From contig CAZYYJ010000015.1 of the NCBI GenBank assembly GCA_964651595.1, forward strand, positions 12,304 through 76,303: a DNA stretch of 64,000 nucleotides. The letters run 5' to 3'. Shown piece by piece: positions 7,018 through 37,076 of the stretch. Position 1 is the first letter of the stretch. The number at the start of each line of letters is the position of its first letter. The translations under genes and the position numbers were made by a program. This DNA is from an uncultured Pseudomonadales bacterium (lineage in GTDB: Bacteria; Pseudomonadota; Gammaproteobacteria; Pseudomonadales; Azotimanducaceae). The notes under the pieces are model-generated. The model saw nothing but the letters and a program-made list of their open reading frames with translations, did no database searches and was not told the DNA's origin.

Positions 7018-7048
7018 CAGACCGAAACTTCCGTCCGCAATGTTCGAA

Positions 7049-7077: not shown

Positions 7078-7163
7078 CGTTTAGCCTCCCCGCGTGGCGC
7101 TGCGTGACCGTGAACGCTAAACTCGCCGGCTTTCGCCCGTAAAACAACAAATAGAGGCAAGCC

Positions 7164-8456
7164 GTGTCGTCCGTAGCCGCCCCCCTGATTTCCGACAACG
7201 TCAAGCGCTATACCCTCGGGGTGCTGGTCGTGGTGTACACCTTCAACTTCATCGACCGGCAGATCCTGTCAATTCTCATTGAACCCATCAAAGCGGATCT
7301 GGGCGTATCGGATTTCGGCATGGGCCTGCTGTCCGGCACGGCGTTCGCCATCTTCTATGCCACGCTGGGCATGCCGCTTGCACTCATTGCCGACCGCTGG
7401 AACCGGCGCAACCTCATCGGCATCTCCCTGGCGCTGTGGAGCGGCATGACCGCGTTGTCGGGGCTGGCGCAGAACTTCTGGCACCTGGCAATAGCACGCA
7501 TCGGTGTGGGAGTGGGGGAAGCGGGTTGCAGTCCCGCAGCCCATTCCATGATTGCCGATCTGTACGAAGCCAAAGAGCGGGCCACGGCCCTGGGTGTCTA
7601 TTCGCTGGGTATTCCCATCGGCATCATGTTCGGCCTCTTTGCGGGAGGTGCCATTGCAGACGCCTTCGGCTGGCGCCTGGCATTTTTTGTGGTGGGCGTG
7701 CCCGGCATTCTCCTCTCCGTGGTGGTGTTTCTCACGGTGAAGGAACCCCCCCGGGGGCACGCCGACGGACATACGGCCGCGTCGGATGAGCCGCCGCCAT
7801 CGATCAAAGAGGTGTTCCGGTACCTGTGGACCCGTCGCTCTTTCCTGCACCTGGCCACCGGTGGCGGCCTCACCGCTTTCGTGGGTTACGGGCTCATTAC
7901 CTGGGCGCCGACGTTTTTTGTGCGCAGCCACGAGATGAGTCTCACGGAGGCGGGCTTCTGGCTGGGCCTGGTGCTGGGTATTCCCGGCGGTTTGGGCATT
8001 GTCGCGGGTGGGTGGGTGTCAGACCGCTTCGGCGCCCGCGACACGCGCTGGTATCTGTGGGTGGTGGCCGTGGCACTGGCGGTTGCTGTACCGCTGGGCG
8101 CGGCGGCCTTTCTGGTGGAGGCGTGGTGGGCCTCGCTGCTGCTGCTGTCGCTGCCGATCATGCTGGGTAACTTCTACCAAGGCACCACGTTCGCGCAGGT
8201 GCAGGGTCTTGCACCGGTGCGCATGCGCGCCGTGGCGGCGGCCATTCTGCTGTTCATTCTCAACTTTATCGGCTTCGTCTTCGGGCCCCCGGCCGTCGGG
8301 ATTCTGTCCGATCAGCTTGTCGGCAGCTTCGGCGATGATTCGCTGCGCTACAGCCTCTTCACCTGGGGATTTGTGAACATCTGGGCAGCGTTTCATTACT
8401 GGCGTGCCGGTGGACACCTGCCGGGCGACCTGGCGCGGGCCGGGGAGAGTTCCTGA
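7164..8456 (+). CDS. MFS transporter
   Basis: 12 predicted TM helices and the MFS signature loop (ADRWNRRN). Paralog of the 16884..18158 gene. Confidence 0.85.
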   Translation: MSSVAAPLISDNVKRYTLGVLVVVYTFNFIDRQILSILIEPIKADLGVSDFGMGLLSGTAFAIFYATLGMPLALIADRWNRRNLIGISLALWSGMTALSGLAQNFWHLAIARIGVGVGEAGCSPAAHSMIADLYEAKERATALGVYSLGIPIGIMFGLFAGGAIADAFGWRLAFFVVGVPGILLSVVVFLTVKEPPRGHADGHTAASDEPPPSIKEVFRYLWTRRSFLHLATGGGLTAFVGYGLITWAPTFFVRSHEMSLTEAGFWLGLVLGIPGGLGIVAGGWVSDRFGARDTRWYLWVVAVALAVAVPLGAAAFLVEAWWASLLLLSLPIMLGNFYQGTTFAQVQGLAPVRMRAVAAAILLFILNFIGFVFGPPAVGILSDQLVGSFGDDSLRYSLFTWGFVNIWAAFHYWRAGGHLPGDLARAGESS

Positions 8457-8472
8457 AGGAGACCGGGCCCGG

Positions 8473-8503
8473 TGCCGGTCTGCGTGCGGGGCCGGCACTT
8501 TTC
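8473..8503 (+). terminator. Rho-independent terminator
   Basis: GTGCCGG...CCGGCAC hairpin followed by TTTT, just after the MFS stop. Confidence 0.5.
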
Positions 8504-8577
8504 CAAGGCGCGGACTTTGGTGGTATAAACAACCGCTCGTAAACGGCTGACGAACGGGGCAGGGAGCCGTCACGCCG

Positions 8578-11500
8578 ATGCGCAAAGCCACACAATGGGT
8601 CAAACCCTTCTCGTACACGCTGATTGCGCTGGTGCTGCCGGCGTTTGCCTATTTCATCGTGTTCATCGAGGTGCGCGAGGAAGCGCTCATTGAGCGCATC
8701 CACACGCAACTCGCCATGATTGCCACCCGCACCGAGAGTCGCCTCAATCAGGCGTTCCGCGTGGTGAAGAACGCTGACGCCCGGTACGACAAACGCAACA
8801 CCGTATATGCCCAGGGGGAGTTTGGCCTGGTCAACGCGGACTGTGCGGTCGATCGGCAAAACGAGACAGACCTGAAGGCGCGGCTCGACGGCATCGACGC
8901 CACGCTGGGTGAGGTGTGCATCAACGTTGATCTCGGCCTCGCCTACGAGGTCAGCGAATTTGGCGCAACGTTCTTCCACAATGCCGAAGGCACCGAGACA
9001 GATTCGCGGGAAGTGGTGACATCGGAGCAGCTCGACGGCCCCGAATACGAATTCCTGCAAACGTCCTACAAGCCGTCCGGACGCGCCGTACGCAGAGCGA
9101 GTGCGCCGGCAGCACAACTCGTGGGCTCGGTAGATGTTGCCGGGCGCTTTCACGACCTGCTGTTGATTTACGACGAGAAGACCGTCTACCAGAAGTTTCC
9201 CGAAAAGGGTCGGGTGGTGGACGTGGACGCCATTGATCCGGGTGCGGATGACGCGGAGGACGGCGATTCGGATGCTTCGCTGCAGCCCGTTGCGGATGCG
9301 CTGGACGGCATGCGCGTGAGTTACCAGGGCCGGACGTTTCTCGTGTTCGAGCAACCGATTGCGTTCAGCTTCACCGACAAGCAGTGGCGCATGCTGGGCC
9401 TCGTGGACGAGGCGGTGCTGAACGCGGAGAAGATGCGCTTCGAACGGGGCACGATGAGCCTGATTGTGCTCGCCGCAATCACCCTGCTTCTGTTGATTCC
9501 CTTTGCCAAAGTCTGGTTTCTGGGGCGCTACGGTTCCCTGACGCAGTCGGACATGCTGGCGCTGGTGGTGTGCGGCTTCAGCCTGGTTGCCCTTCTGACG
9601 CTCGTGCTGCTGCACTGGTGGACCGCTGAGCGGCTGCTGCACGCGTGGGATGCGCGCCTGGAGGCCGTGGCCACGGAAATGGCGGAGGATGTGGAAACCG
9701 AGATCCGCGGTGCCGTCACCCAGTTGGACGCAGCCATCCTGCCGATGCGCCAGGCGTTCGAGGCGACACTGGTCTACGGGGACAAGGCAAACTGGAGCAG
9801 CCGTTCCGGTTGTGACCGGCTCGCTAACTTCGAGGACAAGGAGGGGCTGGGCACCTTGGCCAGTAACCTTGCGGCCGGCGGCGCTGACTACGATGCCCGC
9901 GGTCTGACCATTGCGTATCCGCATCTGCGCATGGTGTACCTCATGGACCAGAAGGGCTGTCAGATCGTCAAATGGACCACCTACGACCGGTGGACGGCAC
10001 CGGGGCGGTTTGCAGATCGCGATTACTACCAGCGCCCGCGCCGTGACGGCCGGGTTGCACCGGCGTTGTACAGCATGGCCGACGTCCCCGACTTTTTTAT
10101 CGGTACCATCCAGTCGCGCACCACGGGAGACAAATCTGTCGTTTACAGCCTGCCGGTGGCAGACGTCTGCCCGCCCGAAGAAGCGGAAGGGGTCGAGGCG
10201 GCGTCGTGTGTCGCGGTGCTTTCCGCCACGGGTCTGCGCACCCTGGAGGCAGCCATGCCGAGTGGCTTCGGCTTTGCGCTCATAGACGGGCGGGGTGACA
10301 TTCTCTTTCACAGTGACGGCGGTACGACCGCGGAAACCAATCTGCGTGACGAGCTGGGCAATGGCATTCTACTGACCACGGCCATGCGCCAGGCTACGCC
10401 CCGGCCGGGGGCGGATTTCATCACCACCTACCGCGGGGTGACGCAGCGCTTCGAGGTGGTGCCGCTCACGGGCCTCAAAGGACCGAACTGGCACCTGGTG
10501 GTGTTTGCCGATCAGAACGCCGTGATACTGCCGTTGCTGGAAACTGCGGGCATCACCATTGTGTTGTGGCTGTTCGGCTTCGGCATCGCGTTGACCCTCT
10601 TCATGGGTTGGCTGCGGCGACGCCCCGTCGAAGCCAGGCGTAAGGGAGACGCAGACACCGCAGACGCGGCATCGGTCTCGCTGGCCGTGGTGATCGTCGC
10701 CGGCATGCTCTACCTCATTGCCATGCTCGCTTTTTCCCTCGACGAGCTGCTCGCGCTGGTGCTGGGCGGCTTATCCACGCTGCTGCTGATGGCTTGCGCG
10801 GTTCGCCACCTGCACAGCCACCTGCAGGACAAGACGCACAACGCGCGGCCCTTTGTGCTAGCGGGCATAGGCCTGTTACTGGGCGCGTCGATTCTGCCGG
10901 TGCACCTGCTGCATCAATACGTGGCGCGCGAAGCCGTGGACTCACTCACGAAGCTGCAGATCGACGAGCACTGGGTGGGGCAGGGGCGTCAGGCTCAGCT
11001 CAAGCGGGAGTGGCAGCGTCGGGTAGCGCTGCCCGAGGAAGCCAGCTATCGCGACGAGGCGCTCACGTTCTGGCCGACCTATTCGCTGTTCGGCGACAAG
11101 CTGGTGGCTGGAAGTGCGGCAGCGGATGCTCCGCTGGCTGCCCCGGACCGGAACCTGTTGGCGTTCATACCGGATTATTCCGCGGTGGCAGCCACCCAGC
11201 ATGCGATGTATCGCGTGCCCGATACGCGCTTTGCCGATGTCTGTCTCGAGGGTGCTACGAGCGTTTGCGGTGTCGGGGATCTGCGCCGGCAGATTCTGCG
11301 GGAGCGGGTGGAGAACTTTGCGTTCTACTTCTGGTTCTGGGTGGTAACGCTGCTGCTGGTGGGCGCGGTGTTGCTGACCTTGTGGTCGCTGCTGGTGCGC
11401 ACCCTGGGGATACGTGCCGAAGATTTTCTGCGCATCAGCAACTTCAGCCCGCCCGGTGAGAACGCGGGCGCGCGGGACATCATCTATGGGCTTGGAGAGT

Positions 11501-25593: not shown

Positions 25594-25670
25594 CGGAGTG
25601 TAGCTCAGCTTGGTAGAGCACTACGTTCGGGACGTAGGGGCCGGAGGTTCAAATCCTCTCACTCCGACCA
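25594..25670 (+). tRNA. tRNA-Pro (anticodon CGG)
   Basis: Perfect cloverleaf: 7-bp acceptor CGGAGTG/CACTCCG, D-arm GCTC/GAGC, anticodon loop TTCGGGA, T-arm GGAGG-TTCAAAT-CCTCT, discriminator A plus CCA. Confidence 0.9.
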
Positions 25671-25675
25671 ATTCC
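25626..25675 (+). repeat. attL-like direct repeat (3' part of tRNA-Pro)
   Basis: Identical 50-mer TTCGGGACGTAGGGGCCGGAGGTTCAAATCCTCTCACTCCGACCAATTCC. Confidence 0.85.
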
Positions 25676-26012
25676 ATCAATCCCTACAGCGTTAACACGC
25701 ACTAACCCGAAACGTTCTCGAAAACTTTTCGATAACGCTAGTTCACCACTCTCAAAATCGTTCTTCGCTCGTCCAAGATCGACTCTGCAGCCATCAGCAA
25801 TCGCTCTATATCGGGCGTAGCGTATTGCCTACTCAGCCTACCCTGTCTTGAGCCATCCGCGGGTCCCACCCCTTAACCCTTTGGGGCAATTCGTTCTGAG
25901 TTGTCGCTTTCTTATCGACAAACCGCCTATTTTAGATCGCATGGGGTTTGTAACTACAACGACTAAGTAGGCTTTACGTGCGCGAGGGGGTGTGTCCTCG
26001 CCTGGTACCCAA

Positions 26013-27620
26013 TTAGGCCCGCGAAATCTGCTCAAACGAAACGCCGAACTTGTCTAGATACCGCTTCAATCTGTGCGAGTCATTGGTACTCGCTTTTTTC
26101 TCGCGAGAGACAGCAAACAACTGCCGACCTGCTTCCGCCATCGATCTGGACTTTCTACAAACACTGGCGACGTATCCCAGCTGAACACGATCAAATGGAT
26201 CTATCCCTAGTACAGCTTCAGCCCCAAGCAGCGTTGCCAAGAACTCTTCTCCTTCATTGCCGCCAGCAGCTCCGGCCTGCCATCGTAGCTTTAGTAAATC
26301 TATTTCTTGATCGACAATATCCTTGGAGATACGCCCGCCATCTGCCAATGTCGACATCCGCAAAACACTCGAGTTGAGATCGCGAAAGTTGGCGCGCCAT
26401 TCAGCTTCCCCAATGGCAAATTGAACGTAGCGGTCGCGAGCTTCCCGACTGAACCTAATCATAGTGCCAAGTCTCGACCGAGCGTTTTCGACTTCAAAGT
26501 CCAGGTTCGGTTCGATGTCTTCTACACGCTCCTTGAGAGGCGGAAGGTGATAAGTCCAGAGGTCGAGGCGGGCGATTAAATCTTCTCTAAACCGCCCCTC
26601 GCCCACCATCTGCCACAAGTTCTGATTTGTGCCAGCAATAAGCTGAAAGTTGCTGCTGACTTCTTTATCACTGCCGAGCGGAAAGAAGTGTTTCGTCTCA
26701 ATCGCATTGAGCAACATCGCTTGCTCTTCCACGCCCAGCTCGCCGATTTCATCTAGAAACAGAAGCCCATCGTCGGCCTCTCGTAACAGTCCGGCTCGAT
26801 CAGTTGTGGCGCCTGTGAAGGCACCTTTTGCGTGACCAAACAAAGTGGAACTCACCGCGTCTCCTCTTAGCGTCGCGCAGTTCACTGAGACAAAGTTACC
26901 GCCAAATTGAGTACGTTGTTTTTTTAACTCAAAGATCTGCTTCGCCAACTGCGACTTTCCTGCGCCAGTAGGACCGGTTAATAAGATTGGTTCGCTTGAT
27001 CGAATTGATACCTTCTCAATTTGCTCGATCATTGTGTTGAACGCTTTGTTTTTTGTTTGAATACCCTGCTTCAGGTACTCGGTACCCTCTAATTGTTCCA
27101 ATCGAAATCTTGAGGCGATCTGATCATATTTTGAGAGATCTAGATCGATGACATGATATTCGCCTACAGGAAGATCACCTTCCGTTGGCCGGCTGTTCGG
27201 TGGTGAGGTCTGGATTAAGGTTCCAGGCACGTATCGAGCTTCGGTTAGCAGGAACCAACAAATCTGAGCAACGTGAGTGCCCGTTGTCATATGAACCAGA
27301 TAACGCTCTGACTCTATGTCGAATTGATAGTCATCCGTAAAGGATCGAAGTACCCCATATACGTTCGCAAAGTCCCAAGGATCATCTTGCTTAATGACGT
27401 GCTGCACGACCATCGTTTCCGGCGAGATAGTTTCGATATCCCTGGTTACTTGGTCCGCAAGTGATTGGTAGCGCTCTTCTAGAAGCAATTCCAAGCGATC
27501 AACAACAAAGTCATCGTGCTGGCAGAGCGAAACCGTTGGCCGCCACGCATTCCATCTTTTTGAACCTCGCCCCCTGCGATCAAGGTTCGTACCCAACATG
27601 CCAATCACTACTGTCTTCAT
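26013..27620 (-). CDS. rtcR: RtcR, sigma-54-dependent transcriptional activator with N-terminal CARF domain
   Basis: AAA+ sigma-54 activator motifs (LLTGPTGAGKS, the GAFTGA loop as GAFTGATTD, ESELFGH-like), a C-terminal HTH, and a CARF-type N-terminus like RtcR. Divergently placed from rtcBA. Confidence 0.9.
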   Translation of the reverse strand: MKTVVIGMLGTNLDRRGRGSKRWNAWRPTVSLCQHDDFVVDRLELLLEERYQSLADQVTRDIETISPETMVVQHVIKQDDPWDFANVYGVLRSFTDDYQFDIESERYLVHMTTGTHVAQICWFLLTEARYVPGTLIQTSPPNSRPTEGDLPVGEYHVIDLDLSKYDQIASRFRLEQLEGTEYLKQGIQTKNKAFNTMIEQIEKVSIRSSEPILLTGPTGAGKSQLAKQIFELKKQRTQFGGNFVSVNCATLRGDAVSSTLFGHAKGAFTGATTDRAGLLREADDGLLFLDEIGELGVEEQAMLLNAIETKHFFPLGSDKEVSSNFQLIAGTNQNLWQMVGEGRFREDLIARLDLWTYHLPPLKERVEDIEPNLDFEVENARSRLGTMIRFSREARDRYVQFAIGEAEWRANFRDLNSSVLRMSTLADGGRISKDIVDQEIDLLKLRWQAGAAGGNEGEEFLATLLGAEAVLGIDPFDRVQLGYVASVCRKSRSMAEAGRQLFAVSREKKASTNDSHRLKRYLDKFGVSFEQISRA

Positions 27621-27754
27621 ATCTTTCTAAATATATAGCTATCTTTTTGGATAGGTTATTCCAGACTTCTCTGAGAAGATAGAGGGGTGCTGCGGACTAG
27701 AAGATCTATATATATCAAAGGGTTACTGAAACGAGAATGCAAATTTTTATAAGT

Positions 27755-27770
27755 TGGCACGCTTATCGCT
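27755..27770 (+). promoter_or_regulatory. sigma-54 (-24/-12) promoter for rtcBA
   Basis: TGGCACgcttaTCGCT: GG-N10-GC spacing matches the RpoN consensus TGGCAC-N5-TTGC. Lies 50-65 bp upstream of the rtcB ATG and divergent from rtcR. Confidence 0.6.
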
Positions 27771-27821
27771 ATACAGATAACAATCGGAAAATGGCAAGCA
27801 AGTAAGACCAAAGGAATAAAC

Positions 27822-29066
27822 ATGAGCAACGAAGCAGACAGCATTGATCCTTCCTACGAATTGACCCGTGGAAGCGAGGTGGACATTAAGTCTTGGACTA
27901 GGGGCGTCGCTTTTGAAGACGAAGCCCGTGAGCAACTTAAGAACATCTCAACGTTGCCTTTCATTCATAAGTGGATCGCAGTCATGCCCGATGTCCATTT
28001 GGGCAAAGGCGCGACTATCGGCAGCGTTGTACCAACCATTGGCGCGGTGATTCCCGCTGCAGTTGGAGTGGATATCGGGTGCGGCATGATGGCTGTACGC
28101 ACCAGTCTTGTCGCAAATGACTTGCCCGATAGTTTGAGCGGGGTGCGCACCGCTGTTGAAGCAGCGGTCCCGCACGGGCGCTCGGGACGTGCCCGAGGCT
28201 CGAGAGATAAAGGTGCTTGGGGAAATGTTCCCGAAGACGTAGCCGCTGCTTGGACTGACTTGTCTGAAAAGTTCAGCGTGCTGTGTGACAAGCACCCTGT
28301 ATTGAAGAACACGAACAACGTTATTCACTTGGGTACGTTGGGAACCGGGAATCACTTCATCGAGATTTGTCTAGATGAAAAGGACTCTGTTTGGTTCATG
28401 TTGCACAGTGGATCGAGAGGAGTAGGTAACCGTATCGGTACTTACTTCATCGAGCAGGCGAGAAAGGAAATGGAGCGACACCAAATCAACTTGCCTGATC
28501 GTGACTTGGCCTACTTGTCCGAAGGCAGCGAAGGCTTTGGTGACTATGTCGAAGCAGTCGAGTGGGCGCAGACTTTTGCGCGCATCAACCGAGAAGTCAT
28601 GATGGCTCGAGTCATCGGGGCTGTTCGCAGCGAACTCGACATCGCCTTTGAGGCTCGACTGGAAGCCGTAAATTGCCACCACAACTACGTGAATCGTGAA
28701 ACTCACTATGGTGAAGATGTGTTGGTGACCAGGAAAGGTGCCGTGTCTGCTCGCAAGGGTCAGATGGGCATCATTCCCGGAAGCATGGGTGCTCGTTCAT
28801 TTATTGTTCGAGGACTTGGAAACGAAGAGAGTTTCTGTAGCTGCAGCCATGGTGCTGGTCGTGTCATGTCGCGTACAAAGGCAAAGAAACTGGTGAGCTT
28901 GGACGAACATGTCAAAGCAACCGAAGGAGTCGAATGTCGGAAGGACGCTGGAGTGATCGATGAAACGCCTGCCGCATACAAAGACATTGATGCAGTGATG
29001 GCTGCTCAGTCCGACCTTGTCGAAGTGGTTTACACGCTTAAGCAGGTTGTCTGTGTAAAAGGTTAG
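27822..29066 (+). CDS. rtcB: RtcB RNA-splicing ligase (3'-phosphate/5'-OH ligase)
   Basis: Conserved RtcB motifs: MPDVHLGKG, GTGNHF, HNY, SHGAGR. AAGGA Shine-Dalgarno. Confidence 0.92.
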   Translation: MSNEADSIDPSYELTRGSEVDIKSWTRGVAFEDEAREQLKNISTLPFIHKWIAVMPDVHLGKGATIGSVVPTIGAVIPAAVGVDIGCGMMAVRTSLVANDLPDSLSGVRTAVEAAVPHGRSGRARGSRDKGAWGNVPEDVAAAWTDLSEKFSVLCDKHPVLKNTNNVIHLGTLGTGNHFIEICLDEKDSVWFMLHSGSRGVGNRIGTYFIEQARKEMERHQINLPDRDLAYLSEGSEGFGDYVEAVEWAQTFARINREVMMARVIGAVRSELDIAFEARLEAVNCHHNYVNRETHYGEDVLVTRKGAVSARKGQMGIIPGSMGARSFIVRGLGNEESFCSCSHGAGRVMSRTKAKKLVSLDEHVKATEGVECRKDAGVIDETPAAYKDIDAVMAAQSDLVEVVYTLKQVVCVKG

Positions 29067-29137
29067 CCCATTGTCTATTCACTTTAGTGGGAGGGGCTGG
29101 CCAACCCCAATCGAAACTAAACCTAACGGTGACGAAA

Positions 29138-30190
29138 ATGGCAGCAATGGAAATTGACGGCAGTATGGGTGAAGGCGGCGGGCAAGTGCTCAGAACCGCC
29201 CTTACGCTGTCTATGTGCCTGACGCAGCCTATCGCCGTCACTAACATCCGCTCAGGGCGTAAAAAGTCAGGGTTGCTACGCCAACATCTCGCCGCCTTAA
29301 AAGCGGCTGCTGAGATATCGGATGCAGAACTAGAAGGTGCCGAGCTGGGATCTACAGAGATTAGGTTTTTGCCTGGTGTCGTGAAGTCTGGCTCTTACGA
29401 ATTCAAAATTGGTTCAGCTGGTAGTACGACGCTTTTGGCTCAAACGATCATACCTGCACTGAGCATGTTGAAGGAGCAAAGCAGCGTGACCGTGCATGGT
29501 GGTACTCACAACGGCATGGCTCCAAGTGTTGAGTTCGTAGAACTGGCTCTGGTCCCTTTGCTGAAGCGCGCCGGATTAGGCATGGATTCTGACTTGTTGC
29601 GATATGGATTTTATCCAAACGGGGGTGGCACCTGGAAAGCGACAGTCGAACCATGGACCAATGCTCGGTTTGTTGAACTCATCGTACGAGGCAAACCGGT
29701 TTCGAGAGAAGCAGTTGCCACTATCAGCAACCTGCAATCTCACATTGGTGAGCGTGAGCTTGAAAGAGTTGCCAAAAAGCTGGCCTGGACGAACGAAGAA
29801 CTGGTCCTCAAAGAGGTATCAGCGCCGGGCCCCGGGAACTTGCTTTCGTTGAGGTGCGTTTACGAAAACGTCACCGAGGTCTTCGAATCAGTGGGTTCCA
29901 TTGGTTTAAGCGCGGAGAGAGTGGCAGGAAGAGCAATAAGAGATGCTAAGCAATATGTTCAAGGTCGGCATGTTGTTGGTGAGTACTTGGCTGATCAGTT
30001 GCTTCTACCTCTGGTTTTAGGCGCTGGCGGCGTGTTCACCACCGGAGCGCTTAGCAGCCACTGTCGCACCAACATGGCTCTGATAAATCAGATGTTGGGC
30101 GCGGACTATTTCGAGATCGTCGAAGAGATGACAGAGGTGGGGCCGCACTCGACGATAAGAATCCCGAAAGGTTTAGCGCTGGCCCGTTAG
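29138..30190 (+). CDS. rtcA: RtcA RNA 3'-terminal phosphate cyclase
   Basis: N-terminal GEGGGQVLRTALTLS and LRQHL motifs of the RtcA family. Start chosen at MAAMEIDGS, in-frame within the 29087 ORF. Confidence 0.88.
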   Translation: MAAMEIDGSMGEGGGQVLRTALTLSMCLTQPIAVTNIRSGRKKSGLLRQHLAALKAAAEISDAELEGAELGSTEIRFLPGVVKSGSYEFKIGSAGSTTLLAQTIIPALSMLKEQSSVTVHGGTHNGMAPSVEFVELALVPLLKRAGLGMDSDLLRYGFYPNGGGTWKATVEPWTNARFVELIVRGKPVSREAVATISNLQSHIGERELERVAKKLAWTNEELVLKEVSAPGPGNLLSLRCVYENVTEVFESVGSIGLSAERVAGRAIRDAKQYVQGRHVVGEYLADQLLLPLVLGAGGVFTTGALSSHCRTNMALINQMLGADYFEIVEEMTEVGPHSTIRIPKGLALAR

Positions 30191-30304
30191 ACCCAAAGGA
30201 AAACCAGATGGTTTGTTAGCGGAACTGGCTCGTGAGTCCAGCCCGGCGAATGATGCAGCTGAACCTTGGTATTCATTCGTACCAACGAAACAATCTGAAG
30301 CAAT

Positions 30305-30377
30305 AGCTTGTTAGCTCAGTTGGTAGAGCGATCCATTTAGATTGGATTTGTCCCAGGTTCAATTCCTGGACAAGCAC
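30305..30377 (+). ncRNA. tRNA-like element (pseudo-tRNA / possible Y-RNA-like tRNA mimic), anticodon-position UAG, no CCA
   Basis: Cloverleaf: acceptor AGCTTGT/ACAAGCA with an A-A mismatch at 1-72, D-arm GCTC-AGTTGGTA-GAGC, anticodon arm ATCCA-TTTAGAT-TGGAT, 5-nt variable loop, T-arm CCAGG-TTCAATT-CCTGG. Lies immediately downstream of rtcA. Confidence 0.5.
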
Positions 30378-30827
30378 ATTGGGAAAAGCCCTATAACGGC
30401 TTGGGGTTCGACTCCCCTCGAAGGTGATTCCTTCAAAAAGACGGTGGCGCTCGCACATATGAGCTATGGCTTGTGTGTGTTTGCAAGAGCTCGAAGAACC
30501 GTATGGTCCGAGTGCGAAAGCCTTACTCTGGCCTCGCACATTCTGGCTTCACGCAGATTCGAGTTCCGGCTGGGTCGAACTGGCGTCAGTTCCCCTCGTC
30601 TGTTTTAGGAAGAGAGCTGCATTCTATAGTGAAAGCGTGCCGCTGATATGTATTCAACCCGTTGACGTGCAGCTGCACAAACGCGCGTTGACAACTTGAT
30701 GCTGCTGCTAAGTCTAAATGGGGATATGTCTCTTCTTACACAGAGGGTAACCACGTTCCAGAACGACAGAGTGCCACTCTTACTGTGACCGCCCCCACCC
30801 ATGGGGGAAATTTGAGGAGACATACAC

Positions 30828-31970
30828 ATGGTCACGAAAACGATCCGTGTGGCAGAAAATCAGCGGGTACTCTGGTTCCGCGACGGCAACCTAATGGGTG
30901 TGTTGGCTCCTGGAAAGTACAAATTCTGGAAGCGAACACGACATTTGCGATTTGAGTCCTACGACGTCGCAGACGGCGAAGCCGTTTTGCCCAACGCTCA
31001 GTACTTGATTCGTGAGCACAGCGAAATGTTGGGGCAGCACTTGGAAATTCGAGAACTCGAACAGAACCAAGTTGCCTTGATCTCCGTGAACAAGCTAGTC
31101 AAACGTCTGGCCTTGCCCGGTGAAGTGATCGCTTTCTGGAAGAATTCGGTCGATTCCAGCATCGAGGTCGAGAACTTCGCTGAAAGCCTGACCGTTCCCG
31201 ATGAATGGGTTAAGGCTATCAATCAAAGTGGTGACGCTGTTGCGCTGGCAACGCTTAACAAAGCGATATTGCCCGTTACGGTAGATCAGGGTTTCGAAGC
31301 ACTGTTGGTGAACGATGGCGAGATCGCGAGAAGCCTCGCTCCTGGCCGTTATGCGTTTTGGAAACTGGGAAGAGACATAAAAGTCCTCTCAGTAGACAAG
31401 CGTGTGCAGGAAATTGAGATCAACGGTCAGGAGATTCTGACCCGAGATCGGGTTTCACTACGCACCAACGCATCGCTTCAATATCGCATCACGGACGCTG
31501 TTAAAGCGGTTGTTGATACGCCTGATGTGGTCGGATTGGCTTATCGAGCAGTTCAGTTTGCCCTGCGTCGAACGATTGGTTCGCTCACGTTGGACGAACT
31601 ATTGGGTGACAAAACCAAGCTTGGAGACGACGTTCAATCCCAGGTAAGCAGTGAGCTCGCAAATGTGGGTATAGCGGTCACCATGGTTGGCATCAAGGAC
31701 TTCATCTTGCCCGGCGAGATGAAAACGATTTTGAACCAAGTGGTTGAAGCCGAGAAAGTCGCCGAGGCGAATGCAATTCGCCGACGTGATGAAACCCAGG
31801 CAGTCCGAGCACTGGCTAACACGGCAAAGCAGCTGGAAAGCAATGCAATGATGGCCAGGCTTAAGGAGCTAGAAGCACTGCAAACCGTTTCTTCTAGCGT
31901 CGATACCTTGAACGTCTATAACGGACTGGATGGCGTGATGGGTCAACTTGTGAAACTCCAATCCGAATAG
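30828..31970 (+). CDS. SPFH/band-7 (stomatin/prohibitin/flotillin-like) domain protein with N-terminal triple repeat
   Basis: C-terminal SPFH-like region plus coiled-coil (EAEKVAEANAIRRRDETQAV...). Three N-terminal copies of a LAPG-Y-FWK motif. Confidence 0.7.
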   Translation: MVTKTIRVAENQRVLWFRDGNLMGVLAPGKYKFWKRTRHLRFESYDVADGEAVLPNAQYLIREHSEMLGQHLEIRELEQNQVALISVNKLVKRLALPGEVIAFWKNSVDSSIEVENFAESLTVPDEWVKAINQSGDAVALATLNKAILPVTVDQGFEALLVNDGEIARSLAPGRYAFWKLGRDIKVLSVDKRVQEIEINGQEILTRDRVSLRTNASLQYRITDAVKAVVDTPDVVGLAYRAVQFALRRTIGSLTLDELLGDKTKLGDDVQSQVSSELANVGIAVTMVGIKDFILPGEMKTILNQVVEAEKVAEANAIRRRDETQAVRALANTAKQLESNAMMARLKELEALQTVSSSVDTLNVYNGLDGVMGQLVKLQSE

Positions 31971-32029
31971 GAGCGGAGTAAGCTGGCGGTAGCGCTTCGG
32001 CGCTGCCGTAGTTCTATCTGGAATGATCG

Positions 32030-32476
32030 ATGGATAACCGCAAAAAAACCTATGTCTTTGATATGGACGGTACGCTGGCGTTGGTGGACCATCGGCGAGG
32101 ACTCCTGGAGGGAGAGAAGCCAGACTGGCATAGCTTCAATAAGGCATCCCTACTTGATCCCCCGAACGAGCCTGTAAGCAATGTTCTCAAATCCTTGTTT
32201 GCGGCAGGCTTTCAGATTTGGATCGTTAGCGGTAGGAGCGATATTGCAGAGTTAGAAACTCGAGGGTGGCTTACAAAATACGAGATTCCCTTCCACCAAC
32301 TGTTGATGCGATCTGCTTCAGACAACAGACCAGACGATATCCTGAAAAAGGAGTGGGCGCTGAAGTATCAGTTTCCGGAAACAGTTTTAGCGGTTTTCGA
32401 TGACCGTAACTCCGTTGTAAATATGTGGCGAGACCTAAACATTCCTTGTTTCCAGGTCGCCGAAGGAGACTTTTAG
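32030..32476 (+). CDS. stand-alone HAD-family polynucleotide 3'-phosphatase (T4 Pnkp phosphatase-domain-like)
   Basis: DxDGT motif (FDMDGTL). C-terminal AVFDDRNSVVNMWRDLNIPCFQVAEGDF closely matches the C-terminus of the phage T4 Pnkp phosphatase domain (...DDR..VVEMWRR.GV.CWQVASGDF). Confidence 0.75.
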   Translation: MDNRKKTYVFDMDGTLALVDHRRGLLEGEKPDWHSFNKASLLDPPNEPVSNVLKSLFAAGFQIWIVSGRSDIAELETRGWLTKYEIPFHQLLMRSASDNRPDDILKKEWALKYQFPETVLAVFDDRNSVVNMWRDLNIPCFQVAEGDF

Positions 32477-33273
32477 TGTCAATTCCACAGGGTGTTCGAG
32501 ATGAGATCATTCGAAGGCTGAACGCCTGTGAACTAGAACACGGCGTCCGAATCATCTATTGCGCGGAATCTGGATCCAGGGCTTGGGGATTTGCCTCCCC
32601 CGACTCAGACTATGACGTGCGCTTTATTTACGTGCGGCCTAGCGATTGGTACTTGTCATTTGACGTTGAACGCAGGAGAGACGTCATCGAGTATCCGATT
32701 GTCGACGAAATCGATATCAATGGCTGGGACTTACGAAAAGCTCTCTATCTGTTTACTCGTACCAACGGCGCCTTATTGGAGTGGTTGGGAAGCCCTATTG
32801 TGTATAGAGAAATCGGAGAAACCGCTGCGAACCTTCGAGAACTGGCACGCTCACATATCAGCGATATCGCACTCTGTTACCACTACAGTCACATGGCCCG
32901 TCGCAACGCTCAACAATTCCTTGAGAAAGATGAAGTGAAACTCAAGAAATACTTCTACGTGCTGCGACCATTACTCGCGATTCGGTGGATTCAGAACGGT
33001 AAGGGAGTACCCCCTGTTCCGTTTGAAGAACTACTACACGCAGAAGCGCCAGCAAGCCTAATCGGTGAGGTAGAGAAGCTTCTTGAAGTGAAGAAGAGAA
33101 CCCCGGAGCTAGGAGTCGGACCTAGGATTCAGGAGATTAATGACTTCGTGTTTGGTGAGTTTGAGCGCTATGGAGACCAGTTCTCGGGGCAAGGTAGACC
33201 AGAGCAGGAAAGCTCGGAGCGACGGGAAGAACTTAACGATGTATTTCGGAGTGCGGTGAATACACAGCCCTAA
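32476..33273 (+). CDS. Pol-beta-superfamily nucleotidyltransferase (COG3541-like)
   Basis: GS-x9-DSDYD nucleotidyltransferase motif (ESGSRAWGFASPDSDYDVRF). GTG start overlaps the phosphatase stop (TAGTG), indicating translational coupling. Confidence 0.6.
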   Translation: MSIPQGVRDEIIRRLNACELEHGVRIIYCAESGSRAWGFASPDSDYDVRFIYVRPSDWYLSFDVERRRDVIEYPIVDEIDINGWDLRKALYLFTRTNGALLEWLGSPIVYREIGETAANLRELARSHISDIALCYHYSHMARRNAQQFLEKDEVKLKKYFYVLRPLLAIRWIQNGKGVPPVPFEELLHAEAPASLIGEVEKLLEVKKRTPELGVGPRIQEINDFVFGEFERYGDQFSGQGRPEQESSERREELNDVFRSAVNTQP

Positions 33274-33354
33274 CGTACCTCCAGCAAGCTGTGAGCCGCT
33301 AGCAAGTCGCTCAGTACTATATATCTATCCAGTTTTGTGGCTTAGTATTAGGCC

Positions 33355-35853
33355 ATGATCAATCCCGAAGAAGGCAGCAGCAACACAGACAACAACCTCG
33401 TAGCCGCAGAGTTACTGGACCGGTATGCGCAGCTCGATTTGTCCGACGCAAACGAAGCAGAGACGCGACTCAAACTAATAGATCGGATTTTCTTTGAGCT
33501 TTTAGGATGGTCACATGACGATGTTACTGTGGAGGAGCGTGTAACAGAGGATTCTGGGCTTGCATACACAGACTACGTTTTCCGAACCGCTAACACAGCC
33601 TTCATAGTTGAGGCCAAGCGGGTCGGCCAAACCTTCAAGTCTGTAGGAGATATGCGTCGTTCCAAACTTACAGGCAACTTGGTGAAAGGCCAGTCCGGGG
33701 ACGCGATCAAACAAGTCCGAGATTACTGCAGACAAAAGTCTATTCAATTTGCAGTCGCGACAAATGGAGCTCAGTGGGTCGTGTTTCCAGCAGTTCGAAC
33801 TGATCAGGTTAGTTTTGCAAACTCTTCTGCAATCATCTTCGACTCTCTGGCCACTGTTTTAGGCCAGGAGTTCGACGACTTCTACGAGCTGCTATCGCGC
33901 GACGCAGTTATAAATGGACATCTAGAACTCGAGCTTCTCGGTAGAAGTGAAGACCAGATCGAAGAACGAAGACTGAACGCATTTTATGGTTCGACTGGAA
34001 GATCAAAACGAAACCCCATCTATCCCCTGATTCAAGACGCTATTACGGAGGCATTTACTGACTCAATAATCGACAAGGACGATCAATTACTAGAGAAGTG
34101 CTACGTACCATCTGCCGATAGGATCAGGTTCGACAAAAAAATCAAAATGCATCTGCAGCGAGCGGATAGCCTATTTAGCAGGCAAGCGGCGAGACCGCTC
34201 CGCCGAAGCTCCGATGCCAAAGTACTTTCCGAATCAGTGGAGGCAGCTCGCGGCCTTGGGCGTCCTCTTGCAGTACTCGTTCTTGGGCCAGTTGGGGCGG
34301 GTAAGACAACTTACCTAAACTACTCCAGACGAGTTTCGGCGAAGGCGTTCTTTTCAGAGAAGAAAGACCGACTTTACCCTCAATGGATTCAAATTGATTT
34401 CCGCAAGCTCAGTGGTTCGGAATCGCCAACTGACTTTGTGTACTCATGCCTGCTGGAATACATGCGTGACGAGCCGCTCTTAAAAGATTGGGGGCGCGCT
34501 GTTCGGCCAGCTTACGGGAAGGACATCGAATCGCTAAAGGCCGGTCCCTTACATCTTTTGGCGAAGAACGAAGAAAAATTCGAAGAGAAAATCTCTGAAC
34601 TGGTGCTGAAAGACTATGAGTCTGTAACTCCGTATGTGGACAAAGTCCTTGGATGGCTTGGGGGTCACGAACCTATTTTCTTAGTTGTCGACAATGTGGA
34701 TCAATTTGAGTCCTCTGATTTTCAATCAAAGATTTTCTCCGAATGTATTGCGATCGCCAGCCGAATTGGACTGAATCTGGTGATGTCGATGCGCGAATCA
34801 ACCTATATCGAACATCGTCACTCAGCGACATTTGACGCGTTCGATTTCGACCCAATTCAGATCGAACCCCCTCAGATTGGGCCGGTTCTTTCTAGGCGCT
34901 TTTTCGTTGCAAAAAACATCCTCAAAAATCGGCCCGGCGAGTTTCGTACACAGAGTGGACCGCTGTTTCGCGCTGCCGATTTGTCGGTTTTCATGGATGT
35001 CGTACAGAGTTCGGTTCTCGGCACCGAAGTTGGAACACGGATAGAAGTCCTTGCTGACGGCGATGTGAGGCTAGCGTTGCGCATGACCAGGGAGTTTCTA
35101 GAGTCCGGCTATTCAGATCCCGCAAAAGCAATTGCAGTAGTCGAACGCGGAGAGACTTACACAATGCCCAAACACGAGGCCCTCCGCTCGATCATCCTGG
35201 GGAACAAAACAACATACTCTGAGGAATTGTCTGTATTGGGGAACCCCTTTGACTCACGCCAAGGTATTACCAATCTCCAGTTGTTAAGAACGTTCATTTT
35301 AAATGCGTTAGTGAGCCTGAGCAGTGATGGAAGATTTAAGAAACTTGATGGCCCGACTATAAGGGATGAGTGCAACAAGATAGGCGTTTCTCAGGACATA
35401 ACGCTAAACACACTAAAGGACCTGTGTCGCCTGAACTTTGTCAGCACGTCGTCCCACGCAGAAGCTGATTTCACCTCGAGCTTCTTCCCGAGCCGATTGG
35501 GCGGCTTCATCATCCGCGACTTAATGGCAGATATGACTTTCGTGGAGAACGTGCTTCTAGATACATTTATCGACGAAAAAGAGACCTGGGAAATCCTGAG
35601 AAAGCTAAGCGACGAAATACAGGCGGAACGACAGCCAACAAAACGACTCAAAGTCAGGGTCAAACGTGTTAAAGCTTTCTACGAATACATGGAGGAGCTA
35701 TACACTCCACTAGCAGCCGAAGCCCAACGGAGAGCTCTACCAAAAGAGTGGTGTAGTAATCCGCTTAAAGAGAACAAGACTCGGCTCTGGAACAACTGTA
35801 ATCAGGCGATCAAGTCCTCCACCAGGCACTATCCCGCAAAGGCCAAAAGGTAA
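33355..35853 (+). CDS. PD-(D/E)xK nuclease (HsdR-N/Mrr-like) / P-loop NTPase fusion protein, 832 aa
   Basis: N-terminal EAETRLKLIDRIFFELLGW...YTDYVF...FIVEAKR, a restriction-endonuclease-like D...EAK motif. Central Walker A VLGPVGAGKTT and Walker B IFLVVDNVDQFE. Long alpha-helical C-terminus. Confidence 0.6.
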   Translation: MINPEEGSSNTDNNLVAAELLDRYAQLDLSDANEAETRLKLIDRIFFELLGWSHDDVTVEERVTEDSGLAYTDYVFRTANTAFIVEAKRVGQTFKSVGDMRRSKLTGNLVKGQSGDAIKQVRDYCRQKSIQFAVATNGAQWVVFPAVRTDQVSFANSSAIIFDSLATVLGQEFDDFYELLSRDAVINGHLELELLGRSEDQIEERRLNAFYGSTGRSKRNPIYPLIQDAITEAFTDSIIDKDDQLLEKCYVPSADRIRFDKKIKMHLQRADSLFSRQAARPLRRSSDAKVLSESVEAARGLGRPLAVLVLGPVGAGKTTYLNYSRRVSAKAFFSEKKDRLYPQWIQIDFRKLSGSESPTDFVYSCLLEYMRDEPLLKDWGRAVRPAYGKDIESLKAGPLHLLAKNEEKFEEKISELVLKDYESVTPYVDKVLGWLGGHEPIFLVVDNVDQFESSDFQSKIFSECIAIASRIGLNLVMSMRESTYIEHRHSATFDAFDFDPIQIEPPQIGPVLSRRFFVAKNILKNRPGEFRTQSGPLFRAADLSVFMDVVQSSVLGTEVGTRIEVLADGDVRLALRMTREFLESGYSDPAKAIAVVERGETYTMPKHEALRSIILGNKTTYSEELSVLGNPFDSRQGITNLQLLRTFILNALVSLSSDGRFKKLDGPTIRDECNKIGVSQDITLNTLKDLCRLNFVSTSSHAEADFTSSFFPSRLGGFIIRDLMADMTFVENVLLDTFIDEKETWEILRKLSDEIQAERQPTKRLKVRVKRVKAFYEYMEELYTPLAAEAQRRALPKEWCSNPLKENKTRLWNNCNQAIKSSTRHYPAKAKR

Positions 35854-35968
35854 CTCGATAAAATCTCGATAACTCAGTCCTGCTTAGTCCTGCTCTGTCG
35901 TGCAATTCGCTACAGTCGCACTCTAAATAAAGTTAATTAAATCAATAGGTTAGATAGTATATTTAACT

Positions 35969-36018
35969 TTCGGGACGTAGGGGCCGGAGGTTCAAATCCT
36001 CTCACTCCGACCAATTCC
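35969..36018 (+). repeat. attR-like direct repeat (copy of tRNA-Pro 3' end)
   Basis: Exact 50-bp match to 25626..25675. Flanking sequence diverges immediately on both sides. Confidence 0.85.
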
Positions 36019-36078: not shown

Positions 36079-36987
36079 TTAACTCCGTAGCAGATTGGTT
36101 ATTGGCACCGTGATGCACGCCTGTGTATCAGCCAGTTGCTTGTCGCCAATGATCCCCTGAAACCAGGTGCTGCTGGCCAGATCGTGAAAGTACTGACTGC
36201 CCGGATAGTAAACCAGCATCGCCTGGTCGAATTTGTGATCGTGCTCCAGCGCTACCGTTGCTCCGATGTGCATCGGGCCGTAACGCAGGTCGGCCATCAA
36301 ACCGAGCATGGCTGAACCATAGGAATCATTGGCTGCTTGCTGTTCAGCGCTGCCGTTGCGGGCCAGATTGACAATCAGAATCGCATCGCGCCCCAGGCTG
36401 CTTGCGTGCTGCAGCAGTGCCGATGAGGCGCCGGCAGGATTCGGTTCCGAGCTTGGTTCAAAGGGCAGAACGTCCGGCGCAAACGTCACTCCCCGCCATA
36501 GCTTCATGGCCAGGAACATCTGGTGCAGCAACACGTTGAGGCTGGCAGAGCGCTCGAACCCGTGTGTGTATTTTGCCGCGAACTGCGCGAGAGCAGCCCC
36601 GATCTCCGGGCGCTTGAGGTAATCCCGATAGGCTTCCCGGCTGGCAAACTGCTGCAACAGGATTGCTTGCCACTCCAGAGACTCGCCAAAGGTCTGCGAA
36701 ATCTGCCGGGACCGAATGCCGGTGTGGATGACCTGGCCGGCGTAGATCAGCGTCGCCTCGGTGTCTGCTGCGGCATTCACCAGGGCTGTCAGTGGTGTCA
36801 TGTATGCCTCACTTTCGCGCGCGCGCACGAAAGTGAGGACGTGAAACGCGTCGCCATGGAACGGGTTCTGGTAGTCCTGTACGGCATTGAGCCGCGCATC
36901 CATGTAGTGGTTGTGCTGATTGACCATGAGCGCGATCACGATCAGAAGGAACACGAAGCCCAGCAAGCCGAGTGTTTTGATTTTCAC
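36079..36987 (-). CDS. hypothetical exported/membrane-anchored protein
   Basis: GTG start preceded by a GGAGGGAG Shine-Dalgarno. N-terminal hydrophobic anchor (LGLLGFVFLLIVIALMV). No recognisable family. Confidence 0.55.
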   Translation of the reverse strand: MKIKTLGLLGFVFLLIVIALMVNQHNHYMDARLNAVQDYQNPFHGDAFHVLTFVRARESEAYMTPLTALVNAAADTEATLIYAGQVIHTGIRSRQISQTFGESLEWQAILLQQFASREAYRDYLKRPEIGAALAQFAAKYTHGFERSASLNVLLHQMFLAMKLWRGVTFAPDVLPFEPSSEPNPAGASSALLQHASSLGRDAILIVNLARNGSAEQQAANDSYGSAMLGLMADLRYGPMHIGATVALEHDHKFDQAMLVYYPGSQYFHDLASSTWFQGIIGDKQLADTQACITVPITNLLRS

Positions 36988-37076
36988 GTCACTCCCTCCT
37001 CGGTGGGTTGGCCCTTCCGTTGCAATACTAACCCAACGCAGAGAGCGTGGTTGCAGACGGGGCACCGAGACCGAAT

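Follow-up and report, generated by a model that had tools for sequence, protein, structure and literature searches.

A candidate defence gene at the edge of a tRNA-Pro island: a nuclease-NTPase, probably stand-alone, from a widespread family without a name

The 64,000-nucleotide stretch of DNA analysed here (the window) carries, next to a set of RNA-repair genes, a gene whose product joins a restriction-type nuclease to a P-loop NTPase, and this locus raises the question of whether such a protein works with its RNA-repair neighbours, belongs to a restriction-modification (R-M) system or acts on its own. The gene is complete, lies on the forward strand and starts at ATG, and its coordinates agreed with those given in the initial annotation (Table 1). 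The antisense strand across the ORF was riddled with stop codons, and an identical protein was encoded on four metagenome contigs alongside the same genes of the island.

The island spans 10.3 kb, is seated in tRNA-Pro, lacks an integrase and is low in G+C, with values of 0.45–0.53 inside versus about 0.57–0.65 in the flanks. The attR repeat begins 113 nt past the stop codon (ending at 35853), and this short distance, together with the G+C step at the flanks, bore out the earlier placement of the gene at the island edge, as the last one before attR. The other island genes comprise only rtcR, rtcB, rtcA, a tRNA-like gene, SPFH, HAD-PNKP and RlaP; the island genes are alike in G+C (0.48–0.53), and neither a methyltransferase nor a specificity partner gene was found among them. 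The nuclease-NTPase gene is one cargo gene among others in this tRNA-Pro island, and because only 81 nt separate it from the gene upstream and 113 nt from attR, the window has no room for a partner gene.

Table 1. Positions of the nuclease-NTPase gene, its domains and motifs, and the island boundaries in the window.
Feature	Residues	Position	Strand	Remarks
tRNA-Pro(CGG) gene		25594-25670
attL copy, 53-nt direct repeat		25623..25675	+	3' half of tRNA-Pro(CGG)
Nuclease-NTPase gene, complete	832 aa	33355..35853	+	ATG start, stop codon included; from ORF list and translation
PD-(D/E)xK nuclease domain, HsdR / type IIG type	27-195	33433..33939	+
NEAETR helix motif	33-38	33451..33468	+	N33, E34, A35, T37 and R38 invariant in 31 homologues
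Catalytic D73...E86-A-K88		33571..33618	+	beta2 and beta3 of core; invariant in 31 homologues
Q120-x-x-x-Y124		33712..33726	+	helix alpha2; both invariant in 31 homologues, kept in distant consensus
Helical linker	196-300	33940..34254	+	mean pairwise identity 0.52
P-loop NTPase core	301-505	34255..34869	+
Walker A GPVGAGKTT	311-319	34285..34311	+	invariant in 31 homologues
Walker B LVVDNVDQ	443-450	34681..34704	+	hhhhD-N-x-D-Q form
R480, sensor-1-like Arg (SMRES)	480	34792..34794	+	end of strand beta4; invariant in 31 homologues, nearly so in 56 distant members
Lid/helical domain and winged-helix domain	506-600 and 601-713	34870..35493	+	model
C-terminal three long helices	714-832	35494..35850	+	net charge +7
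attR copy, 53-nt direct repeat		35966..36018	+	52/53 identical

Conservation was assessed in two alignments, one of 31 full-length homologues and one of 56 distant members that are 19–30% identical to the window protein. In the former, D73, E86, A87, K88, Q120 and Y124 were invariant (31/31), and the DY and EAK motifs were kept in the consensus of the latter. The predicted structures place the catalytic motif (DYVF, residues 73–76; EAK, residues 86–88) in strands 70–77 and 82–90 and NEAETR in a helix spanning residues 32/34–49, of which the invariant E34 may bind metal. The modelled core follows an alpha-beta-beta-beta-alpha-beta fold, nearest to HsdR and type IIG nucleases, and carries the QxxxY motif, which we take to be the RecB-family motif of Type I HsdR nucleases known from the EcoR124I literature. 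The four best structural matches of this domain (HsdR, BpuSI, EcoR124I HsdR and DrdV) are all DNA-cleaving restriction enzymes, which lends no support to the earlier suggestion of a possibly RNA-targeting effector and points to DNA as the probable substrate. At the level of profiles, the window protein stayed below the Pfam gathering thresholds for HSDR_N (17.8 bits, cut-off 25.1) and HSDR_N_2 (16.3 bits, cut-off 25); HSDR_N_2 matches are on record for many homologues, and six of the 56 distant members matched at E <= 0.001. Taken together, the restriction-endonuclease-like N-terminus first proposed from its motifs, with D-EAK invariant on proper alignment, is supported as a nuclease with the restriction-endonuclease fold, closest to the HsdR/type IIG group. 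One public record bears, by automatic annotation, the label 'Predicted type IV restriction endonuclease' for the N-terminus.

The nuclease domain is followed by a helical linker with seven invariant residues (R205, R206, C249, Y250, V251, F259 and D260), modelled partly at low confidence (pLDDT < 50 at 197–216, 270–285 and 294–301), and then by the NTPase core. In the core, G311, G314, G316, K317, T318, T319, D446, N447, D449 and Q450 were invariant in 31/31 homologues, and G316, K317, D446, N447 and D449 were still invariant across the 56 distant members. All the motif strings to which the initial annotation had pointed (NEAETR, DYVF, EAK, GPVGAGKTT and LVVDNVDQ) were thus present as conserved features and not by chance, and the fusion to a P-loop NTPase that it described was upheld by the invariant Walker motifs and by a Cdc6/STAND-like fold. 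The D-N-x-D-Q form of Walker B appears to resemble the NACHT DGxDE pattern; N447 fills the usual second-acidic position of many P-loop NTPases, so that NTP hydrolysis may be slow or absent. R480, which directly follows strand beta4 (residues 474–479 in the model), is a putative equivalent of the STAND sensor-1 Arg. An 88-residue insert of soluble helices (residues 351–438) sits between beta2 and the Walker B strand.

What had been described as a long helical C-terminus was resolved in the model as a lid domain followed by a winged helix and, at the very end, by three long helices. Approximately 235–275 residues align with Cdc6, Orc1 and Orc4, following their layout of AAA+, lid and winged helix, and R515 and N630 were invariant across the 56 distant members. 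In the C-terminus, the model places helices at 714–731, 742–757, 761–792 and 803–825; W745, R768, F775, R793 and W799 are invariant, mean pairwise identity is 0.49, and these helices are a possible sensor or oligomerisation element.

How widespread such proteins are was evident from a protein search, which returned 431 proteins at E <= 0.001, with a query coverage of 96–100% in all 120 homologues listed among them. Clustering at 50% identity gave at least 1277 representatives from many bacterial phyla, and mean pairwise identity per domain was rather even (0.43–0.65), the C-terminus included. No effector swapping, in the sense of a shared NTPase and C-terminus behind a different N-terminal domain, was seen in the top 150 representatives: the full-length matches were nearly all about 780–900 aa long and began to align near residue 270–315, and the consensus of the 56 distant members retains the nuclease motifs. 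The shorter matches among these 150 look like fragments or truncated gene calls. As judged from the alignments, the architecture is fixed throughout this widespread family, which has no name, and the window gene is one of its intact members. No conserved partner gene was found among ORFs of at least 80 aa in 49 related loci, each taken with up to 10 kb of flank per side where the contig allowed; the protein was therefore regarded as a single-gene system. No match was present among 50,697 deposited phage genomes, and the literature searched, with seven RefSeq accessions of family members included, returned no experimental work on any member.

The comparison with known defence families that the initial annotation had proposed was carried out with PADLOC, and no named family matched; a family-level score was reached in none of PADLOC, Pfam and NCBIfam. 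With PADLOC v2.0.0 at E <= 1, the window protein matched only type IIG and DrmMI N-termini, the type IIG match (E 1.5e-7) covering profile positions 26–185 of 1011. For the 56 distant members at E <= 0.001, weak, unrelated matches only were obtained, most commonly to mad8 (best E, 6e-6). The NTPase matches AAA_16, NACHT, nSTAND5 and Cdc6-like folds; the Pfam model nSTAND_NTPase5 (PF25199) scored 24.4 bits (cut-off 34), over residues 280–321 only, and 16/56 members matched it weakly. ResIII, helicase, N6_Mtase and repeat-family Pfam models gave no match in the window protein. Searches of PDB sequences with whole-family and N-terminal-domain profiles were without a significant match, the best being P-loop fragments and HhaI/HsdR at E ~1.

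With regard to restriction enzymes, the nuclease domain is like those of Type I HsdR and type IIG/IIL proteins (EcoR124I HsdR, BpuSI and DrdV; MmeI-like). However, Type I HsdR has an SF2 translocase and hsdM/hsdS partners, neither of which accompanies the window protein, and type IIG enzymes have a fused methyltransferase and target-recognition domain in place of which an AAA+/STAND-type switch is found here. A classical R-M system was ruled out: there is no SF2 motor, no hsdM or hsdS nearby and no conserved neighbour. The same conclusion had been drawn in the initial annotation from the absence of a methyltransferase or specificity partner, and it follows from the gene content of the island and from the lack of a conserved neighbour in the 49 loci.

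Walker A, Walker B and the tripartite module of nucleotide-binding, helical and winged-helix domains are all present, and the fold of this central module matches Apaf-1, CED-4, plant NLRs and EfAvs5. Like Avs/AVAST proteins (Avs1-4), the window protein combines in one polypeptide an N-terminal PD-(D/E)xK nuclease, a P-loop NTPase and helical and winged-helix domains, and it shares with them carriage on mobile elements and defence neighbourhoods. A recent STAND census distinguished 589 clades, analysed sensors of at least 400 residues and named Mrr and Cap4 as nuclease-type effectors (Lee et al. 2026, PMC13581612). This contrasts with the HsdR/type IIG-like nuclease found here and with the only ~120 residues that follow the winged helix, where characterised Avs proteins carry a large TPR-like sensor; moreover, Avs families are modular, whereas the present architecture is fixed over at least 1277 representatives. 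The best reading is that the protein is related in logic to Avs/NLR-like proteins and stands outside every named family. Among other known systems, RADAR RdrA differs from the window protein, which lacks an RdrB-like partner and has a fused nuclease as effector instead of a separate deaminase, and KAP NTPases have a transmembrane insert in the P-loop domain, of which there is none here (highest 19-residue Kyte-Doolittle mean, 1.38). Two candidates were rejected on architecture and gave no sequence match, namely Upx (Gao_Upx), which has no STAND NTPase and a C-terminal nuclease, and Avs5, in which a Sir2 effector is joined to an nSTAND3 NTPase and to repeats at the C-terminus.

The genomic contexts of the relatives make the defence role put forward in the initial annotation plausible. 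One relative adjoins integrase, GmrSD and Type I R-M genes, others lie beside HsdM_N, IS66 or toxin-antitoxin genes, and ORFs flanking relatives match models of Septu PtuA/PtuB, DRT8, PD-Lambda-1, MzaA and methyltransferases, as counted per family and not per locus. Relatives also occur on Klebsiella IncF conjugative plasmids (WP_047062017.1), on an IncFIB plasmid that in addition bears phage-type methyltransferase and exonuclease genes, and inside a Vibrio prophage, right after a peptidase M15_4 (lysis-type) gene. In E. coli, a 44%-identical copy is present in 8/5426 complete genomes. Both loci inspected there (n=2; prophage copy WP_001349602.1) lie in lambdoid prophages, where a DUF977 gene and hokD flank the copy, and in nine other prophages sampled blind, this hotspot held PD-T7-1, SMODS+SLATT, KwaB-like or AIPR genes in four cases (PD-T7-1 match, E 7e-157). 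Some copies of the family are interrupted by IS903B or IS1A, as would be typical of costly accessory genes.

We therefore lean, with moderate confidence, towards a stand-alone, mobile-element-borne defence protein in which a PD-(D/E)xK DNA endonuclease of the HsdR/type IIG type is controlled by an ORC/Cdc6-STAND-type NTPase switch, and the gene is probably an anti-phage defence gene. At rest, such a protein would be a nucleotide-bound, auto-inhibited monomer. A cue derived from infection may be sensed by the non-catalytic regions (linker, helical insert, winged helix and the basic helices of the C-terminus), and would lead to NTP-dependent oligomerisation; the oligomer would gather the nuclease domains and thereby license double-strand DNA cleavage, by which either the invader would be destroyed or the infected cell killed (abortive infection). 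If it acts in defence, the protein represents a compact (~820 residues), strongly conserved and widespread addition to the NLR-like/Avs repertoire, and the union of a Type I/type IIG nuclease with an ORC/Cdc6-STAND switch without a large sensor raises the question of what so small a protein senses. With natural copies in lambdoid prophages of E. coli and on conjugative plasmids of Klebsiella pneumoniae, the defence reading is directly testable. The even conservation of the whole protein is unlike that of sensors in an arms race and counts against this reading. Further observations on the opposite side are that the searches gave no phage-genome match, no experimental work on a member and no family-level model score, that the protein has no large repeat-type sensor, that many relatives have housekeeping flanks, that the central module resembles DNA-binding initiator-clade proteins at least as closely as it does NLR-like STANDs, and that N447 may make hydrolysis slow or absent.

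Conservation as even and strong as this in every domain would suit a ligand that does not vary, such as DNA, and a DNA-sensing, ATP-dependent restriction-like enzyme, although unlikely, is the alternative that survives best. Here, the ORC/Cdc6-like module, in place of a protein-ligand sensor, would bind and assemble on invading DNA, as in ORC/Cdc6, TnsC and MuB, and position the nuclease to cut; the cue would be free ends, replication intermediates or unusual or modified DNA, and self would be told from non-self by a DNA feature and not by a cognate methyltransferase (Type IV-like logic). Structurally, the central module is no more distant from ORC/Cdc6 and TnsC, which bind DNA, than from STANDs of the NLR-like type; ORC/Cdc6 and TnsC both belong to the initiator-clade AAA+ with a lid, ORC/Cdc6 having a winged helix as well. 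The position of the helical insert is, presumably, also that of the initiator-specific motif of ORC/Cdc6. The C-terminal helices are basic (24 K/R versus 17 D/E) with invariant arginines, the nuclease is of a type used by DNA-tracking restriction enzymes, and the automatic label on one record points the same way. Nevertheless, identity to ORC/Cdc6 and TnsC is about 12–17%, with no sequence-level match; the insert is net acidic (-4), the winged helix is net neutral, and the helix at its recognition position (680–692) shows conserved L/D/L/C and no basic residues, which would suit a winged helix that has a regulatory role and does not bind DNA. These features, together with the sensor-1 Arg and the D-N-x-D-Q Walker B, which seem more STAND/NACHT-like than initiator-like, set the protein apart from ORC/Cdc6; the latter is, furthermore, essential, whereas the present protein is nuclease-fused, sporadic and borne on mobile elements.

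A rather improbable reading is that the protein has no defence role and serves mobile elements in some accessory way, in DNA processing or in maintenance, for instance as a recombination/repair nuclease, an addiction or exclusion factor in plasmid/prophage competition or a selfish element. Many related loci indeed sit among ordinary housekeeping genes, most neighbours match no defence model, plasmid copies lie near maintenance genes, and the strong conservation and fixed architecture without effector swapping are unlike modular Avs. Against this reading stand the sporadic spread in E. coli genomes, the validated or annotated defence genes that occupy the prophage slot elsewhere, the relative adjoining GmrSD and Type I R-M genes, and the lack of conserved synteny with repair or replication genes.

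Two other ideas are, taken jointly, quite improbable. The protein could represent a minimal class of NTPase-gated nucleases without a repeat-type protein sensor, in which the ORC/Cdc6-like module would directly recognise and assemble on a nucleic-acid feature of the invader; this could amount to a methyltransferase-independent 'restriction' distinct from R-M and Avs. The other is read-through from an rtc operon controlled by RtcR and sigma-54, by which RNA damage, for instance tRNA cleavage by a phage or toxin, might induce a DNA-degrading effector along with the repair enzymes. The gene lies on the same strand as rtcB, rtcA, SPFH, HAD-PNKP and RlaP, and since a sigma-54-like promoter was predicted upstream of rtcB, co-transcription with the rtc genes is possible. 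A scan around the gene gave no sigma-70-like promoter and, over 6.1 kb, only two terminator-like sites, a number below that obtained with shuffles; the result is uninformative on co-transcription.

That the protein is an RNA-targeting abortive-infection toxin paired with an Rtc module that would reverse its damage is highly improbable and largely refuted, for although the gene starts 81 nt downstream of RlaP, with no sigma-70-like promoter or terminator predicted in the gap, the sigma-54-like promoter further upstream and the G+C content shared across the island, tblastn found RtcR, RtcB, RtcA, SPFH, HAD and RlaP in 0/49 related loci, the annotated contexts of relatives held no RNA-repair genes, no neighbour at all is conserved, and rtc and RlaP are known to occur together where no such nuclease-NTPase gene is present (PMC12776372). 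The functional link to RNA repair that the initial annotation drew from this adjacency was accordingly not borne out, and the adjacency looks like a peculiarity or accident of this one island. For the window, the annotation becomes that of a candidate stand-alone defence nuclease-NTPase and not of a member of an RNA-repair operon.

To judge from its sequence, the nuclease-NTPase ORF is a genuine, intact gene that is under selection. The opposite strand of 33355-35853 carries many stops, an identical protein is encoded on four metagenome contigs with the same island genes, and a protein search retrieved 431 relatives at E <= 0.001, the 120 listed of which are 48-67% identical to the query over 96-100% of its length. 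The motifs quoted in the initial annotation were all recovered, namely NEAETR (residues 33-38), DYVF (73-76), EAK (86-88), GPVGAGKTT (311-319) and LVVDNVDQ (443-450). In an alignment of 31 of these relatives, the putative catalytic and nucleotide-binding residues (N33, E34, D73, E86, A87, K88, Q120, Y124, the G311-T319 P-loop, D446, N447, D449, Q450 and R480) were invariant.

An AlphaFold2 model computed from the 31-sequence alignment (mean pLDDT 78.9) gave the domain layout compiled in the table below. The earlier structural reading of a nuclease joined to a P-loop NTPase is supported. We call the NTPase ORC/Cdc6-STAND-type, a name that covers either clade, since sequence features and fold scores differ: a conserved Arg following beta4 and the Walker B D-N-x-D-Q point to STAND/NACHT, whereas the fold scores of the module point to ORC/Cdc6. 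No solved structure was detectable by sequence for the family.

Features of the island (window positions) and of the nuclease-NTPase protein (residues, AlphaFold2 model)
Feature	Position	Strand	Remarks
tRNA-Pro(CGG) gene	25594-25670		
tRNA-like gene	30305-30377	+	between rtcA and SPFH gene; Rfam tRNA 59 bits
nuclease-NTPase ORF	33355-35853	+	ATG start, 832 residues
repeat of tRNA-Pro(CGG) 3' half (attR)	35966-36018		52/53 nt identical
alpha/beta domain	residues 27-195		
helical linker	residues 196-300		part at low confidence
P-loop domain	residues 301-505		88-residue helical insert 351-438 ahead of Walker B strand
helical lid	residues 506-600		
winged helix	residues 601-713		
three long basic helices	residues 714-832		

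We regard the protein as a probable NTPase-gated DNA endonuclease. Beyond domain identity, we infer that an infection cue would trigger nucleotide-dependent oligomerisation, which would bring the HsdR-type nuclease domains together and license cleavage, so that either the invader would be destroyed or the infected cell would die. This gating logic is that of nuclease-bearing Avs proteins (PMC13581612, PMC12931631), and by analogy the protein would work like Avs/NLR-like effector-NTPase fusions. The main rival is an ORC/Cdc6-like assembly that senses DNA directly, in line with the fold ranking, the position of the insert, a C-terminus that is basic and conservation that is even across the domains; however, the insert is acidic, the helix at the winged-helix recognition position is non-basic, and the sequence features are STAND-like.

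A profile of residues 286-832, run against 1.84 billion representative proteins, matched 1277 proteins at E <= 0.001, of which 848 passed a cut-off of 1e-10 and 243 one of 1e-30. Among the best 150 of these, the full-length proteins were nearly all about 780-900 residues long and matched from around residue 270-315 onwards. Ahead of the NTPase, the consensus EADTR..DY..EAK..QxxxYC..TNG persisted in 56 distant members sharing 19-30% identity with the query, which argues that the architecture is old and fixed; the effector swapping that characterises Avs families was seen neither among these full-length matches nor in the alignment of the 56 members. The hosts of 49 related loci from species-representative genomes comprised several Pseudomonadota classes, Acidobacteriota, Spirochaetales, Ignavibacteriales, Aminicenantes, Obscuribacterales and other lineages.

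Members are named 'P-loop NTPase fold protein' or 'hypothetical protein' at NCBI, and no described function was found for the family in the literature searched. Membership tests placed the protein in neither AVAST nor other PADLOC families, nor in KAP, Upx or Avs5; scores for Pfam nSTAND5 and HSDR_N fell below thresholds, and the protein did not fit the definitions of Type I and type IIG R-M systems. The family may well figure among the 589 STAND clades of a catalogue from 2026 (PMC13581612). It is compact, conserved, widespread and without a repeat sensor, and easily testable in E. coli.

The evidence for a defence role comes from genomic context, and its most telling part is an E. coli prophage slot. 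Among 5426 complete E. coli genomes, eight have a family copy (44% identical, full length, every motif retained), which in the two loci inspected lies in a lambdoid prophage, between hokD and the DUF977 gene that comes after the replication genes. The DUF977 gene was present in 4042 genomes, and nine other prophages were picked from an evenly spread list, their content unseen beforehand. Here, the slot was occupied by PD-T7-1 (PADLOC E 7e-157), a SMODS nucleotidyltransferase with a SLATT protein, a KwaB-like (Kiwa) gene, AIPR genes, QueH alone (two prophages) or unknown proteins (two prophages), a further prophage being truncated. The DUF977-hokD slot (loci L063-L073) is a variable cargo position, often with anti-phage genes. 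No PADLOC match was obtained for the occupants 6614-7576 and 7592-8593 of L066 (320 and 333 aa) or 6552-7496 and 10673-11653 of L065, which could be unrecognised defence genes.

The genomic contexts of other relatives likewise support the defence role guessed at in the initial annotation. When 126 ORFs flanking 35 loci were scanned against PADLOC models (E <= 1e-10), matches to Septu PtuA, PtuB, DRT8, PD-Lambda-1, MzaA, mad2 and methyltransferases were found; the majority of flanking genes at these loci were ordinary ones. The family also occurs on 28 plasmid records, half of them conjugative (14/28), with Klebsiella pneumoniae IncF plasmids among the carriers, and one IncFIB plasmid with a member also bears phage-type methyltransferase and exonuclease genes. 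The Marinomonas copy adjoins HigB-like and Fic toxin genes, and that of Pseudomonas syringae adjoins MvaT, a DUF87 ATPase and a GIY-YIG gene. In Vibrio europaeus (L062, gene 8001-10457), the copy lies in a prophage, where a peptidase M15_4 gene and two small ORFs directly precede it. This block contains many small genes, including one for a protein with P2_N/P2_C domains; the spike protein of the corticovirus PM2 has these domains, and the element may therefore be a PM2-like prophage. On Serratia marcescens plasmids (matches H5 and H6) family copies are interrupted by IS903B, and the copy of E. coli strain H7 (H28) is interrupted by IS1A, which suggests recurrent gene inactivation and fits a dispensable, possibly costly gene.

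The island is flanked by two 53-nt direct repeats of the tRNA-Pro(CGG) 3' end, attL and attR; between them, G+C is 0.45-0.53, versus about 0.57-0.65 in the flanks. The 10.3-kb island carries, in order, rtcR (minus strand), rtcB, rtcA, the tRNA-like gene, the SPFH/Band-7, PNKP-type HAD phosphatase and RlaP genes and the nuclease-NTPase gene, which was thus correctly described as the last gene before attR, beside the RNA-repair genes; 113 nt separate its end from attR. No integrase or other recombinase gene was found in the island (window 25623-36018), with only 337 nt between attL and the end of rtcR, and the island is an integrative element that either has decayed or is mobilised in trans. The first ORF beyond attR (36079-37065, minus strand) has 328 aa in the ORF listing and 302 aa as called on the metagenome contigs; it gave no Pfam or PADLOC match.

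The suggested targeting of RNA found no support, and the proposed functional tie to the Rtc module did not hold: RtcR, RtcB, RtcA, SPFH, HAD and RlaP of the window gave zero tblastn matches in the 49 related loci (flanks up to 10 kb per side), and clustering of all ORFs of at least 80 aa revealed no neighbour common to more than five loci. The settings of the three closest relatives (64-67% identical) also differ from that of the window, one copy lying between csrA and an HsdM_N gene, another adjoining integrase, GmrSD and Type I R-M genes, and the third adjoining IS66. Moreover, rtc operons with RlaP exist independently (PMC12776372). The 81-nt gap upstream of the nuclease-NTPase gene contains no predicted promoter or terminator, and rtcB is preceded by a sigma-54-like promoter; co-transcription of the gene with the upstream genes is conceivable in the window, and would be a local arrangement rather than a family property.

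The RNA-repair cluster itself (26013-33273) is extended, with rtcR divergent from rtcB-rtcA and the following SPFH/Band-7, HAD phosphatase and RlaP genes all on the same strand. The region upstream of rtcB contains a sigma-54-like promoter, TGGCACGCTTATCGC (27755-27769), at a distance of 53 nt from the gene, and a G+C-rich hairpin (31986-32009) lies 3' of the SPFH gene. The longest RlaP ORF starts with GTG at 32425 and overlaps the HAD phosphatase gene at its end; RlaP as called on the identical metagenome contigs starts at the equivalent of 32476 and has 265 aa. The anticodon of the tRNA-like gene is UAG (Leu), but its variable loop is short and of class I, the acceptor stem has an A1-A72 mismatch at its top, and the discriminator is C73; it is therefore not a normal tRNA-Leu. 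As a candidate spare or decoy tRNA within an RNA-repair operon it is worth a look; the Salmonella rsr-rtcBA operon, for comparison, has tRNA-like Y RNAs.
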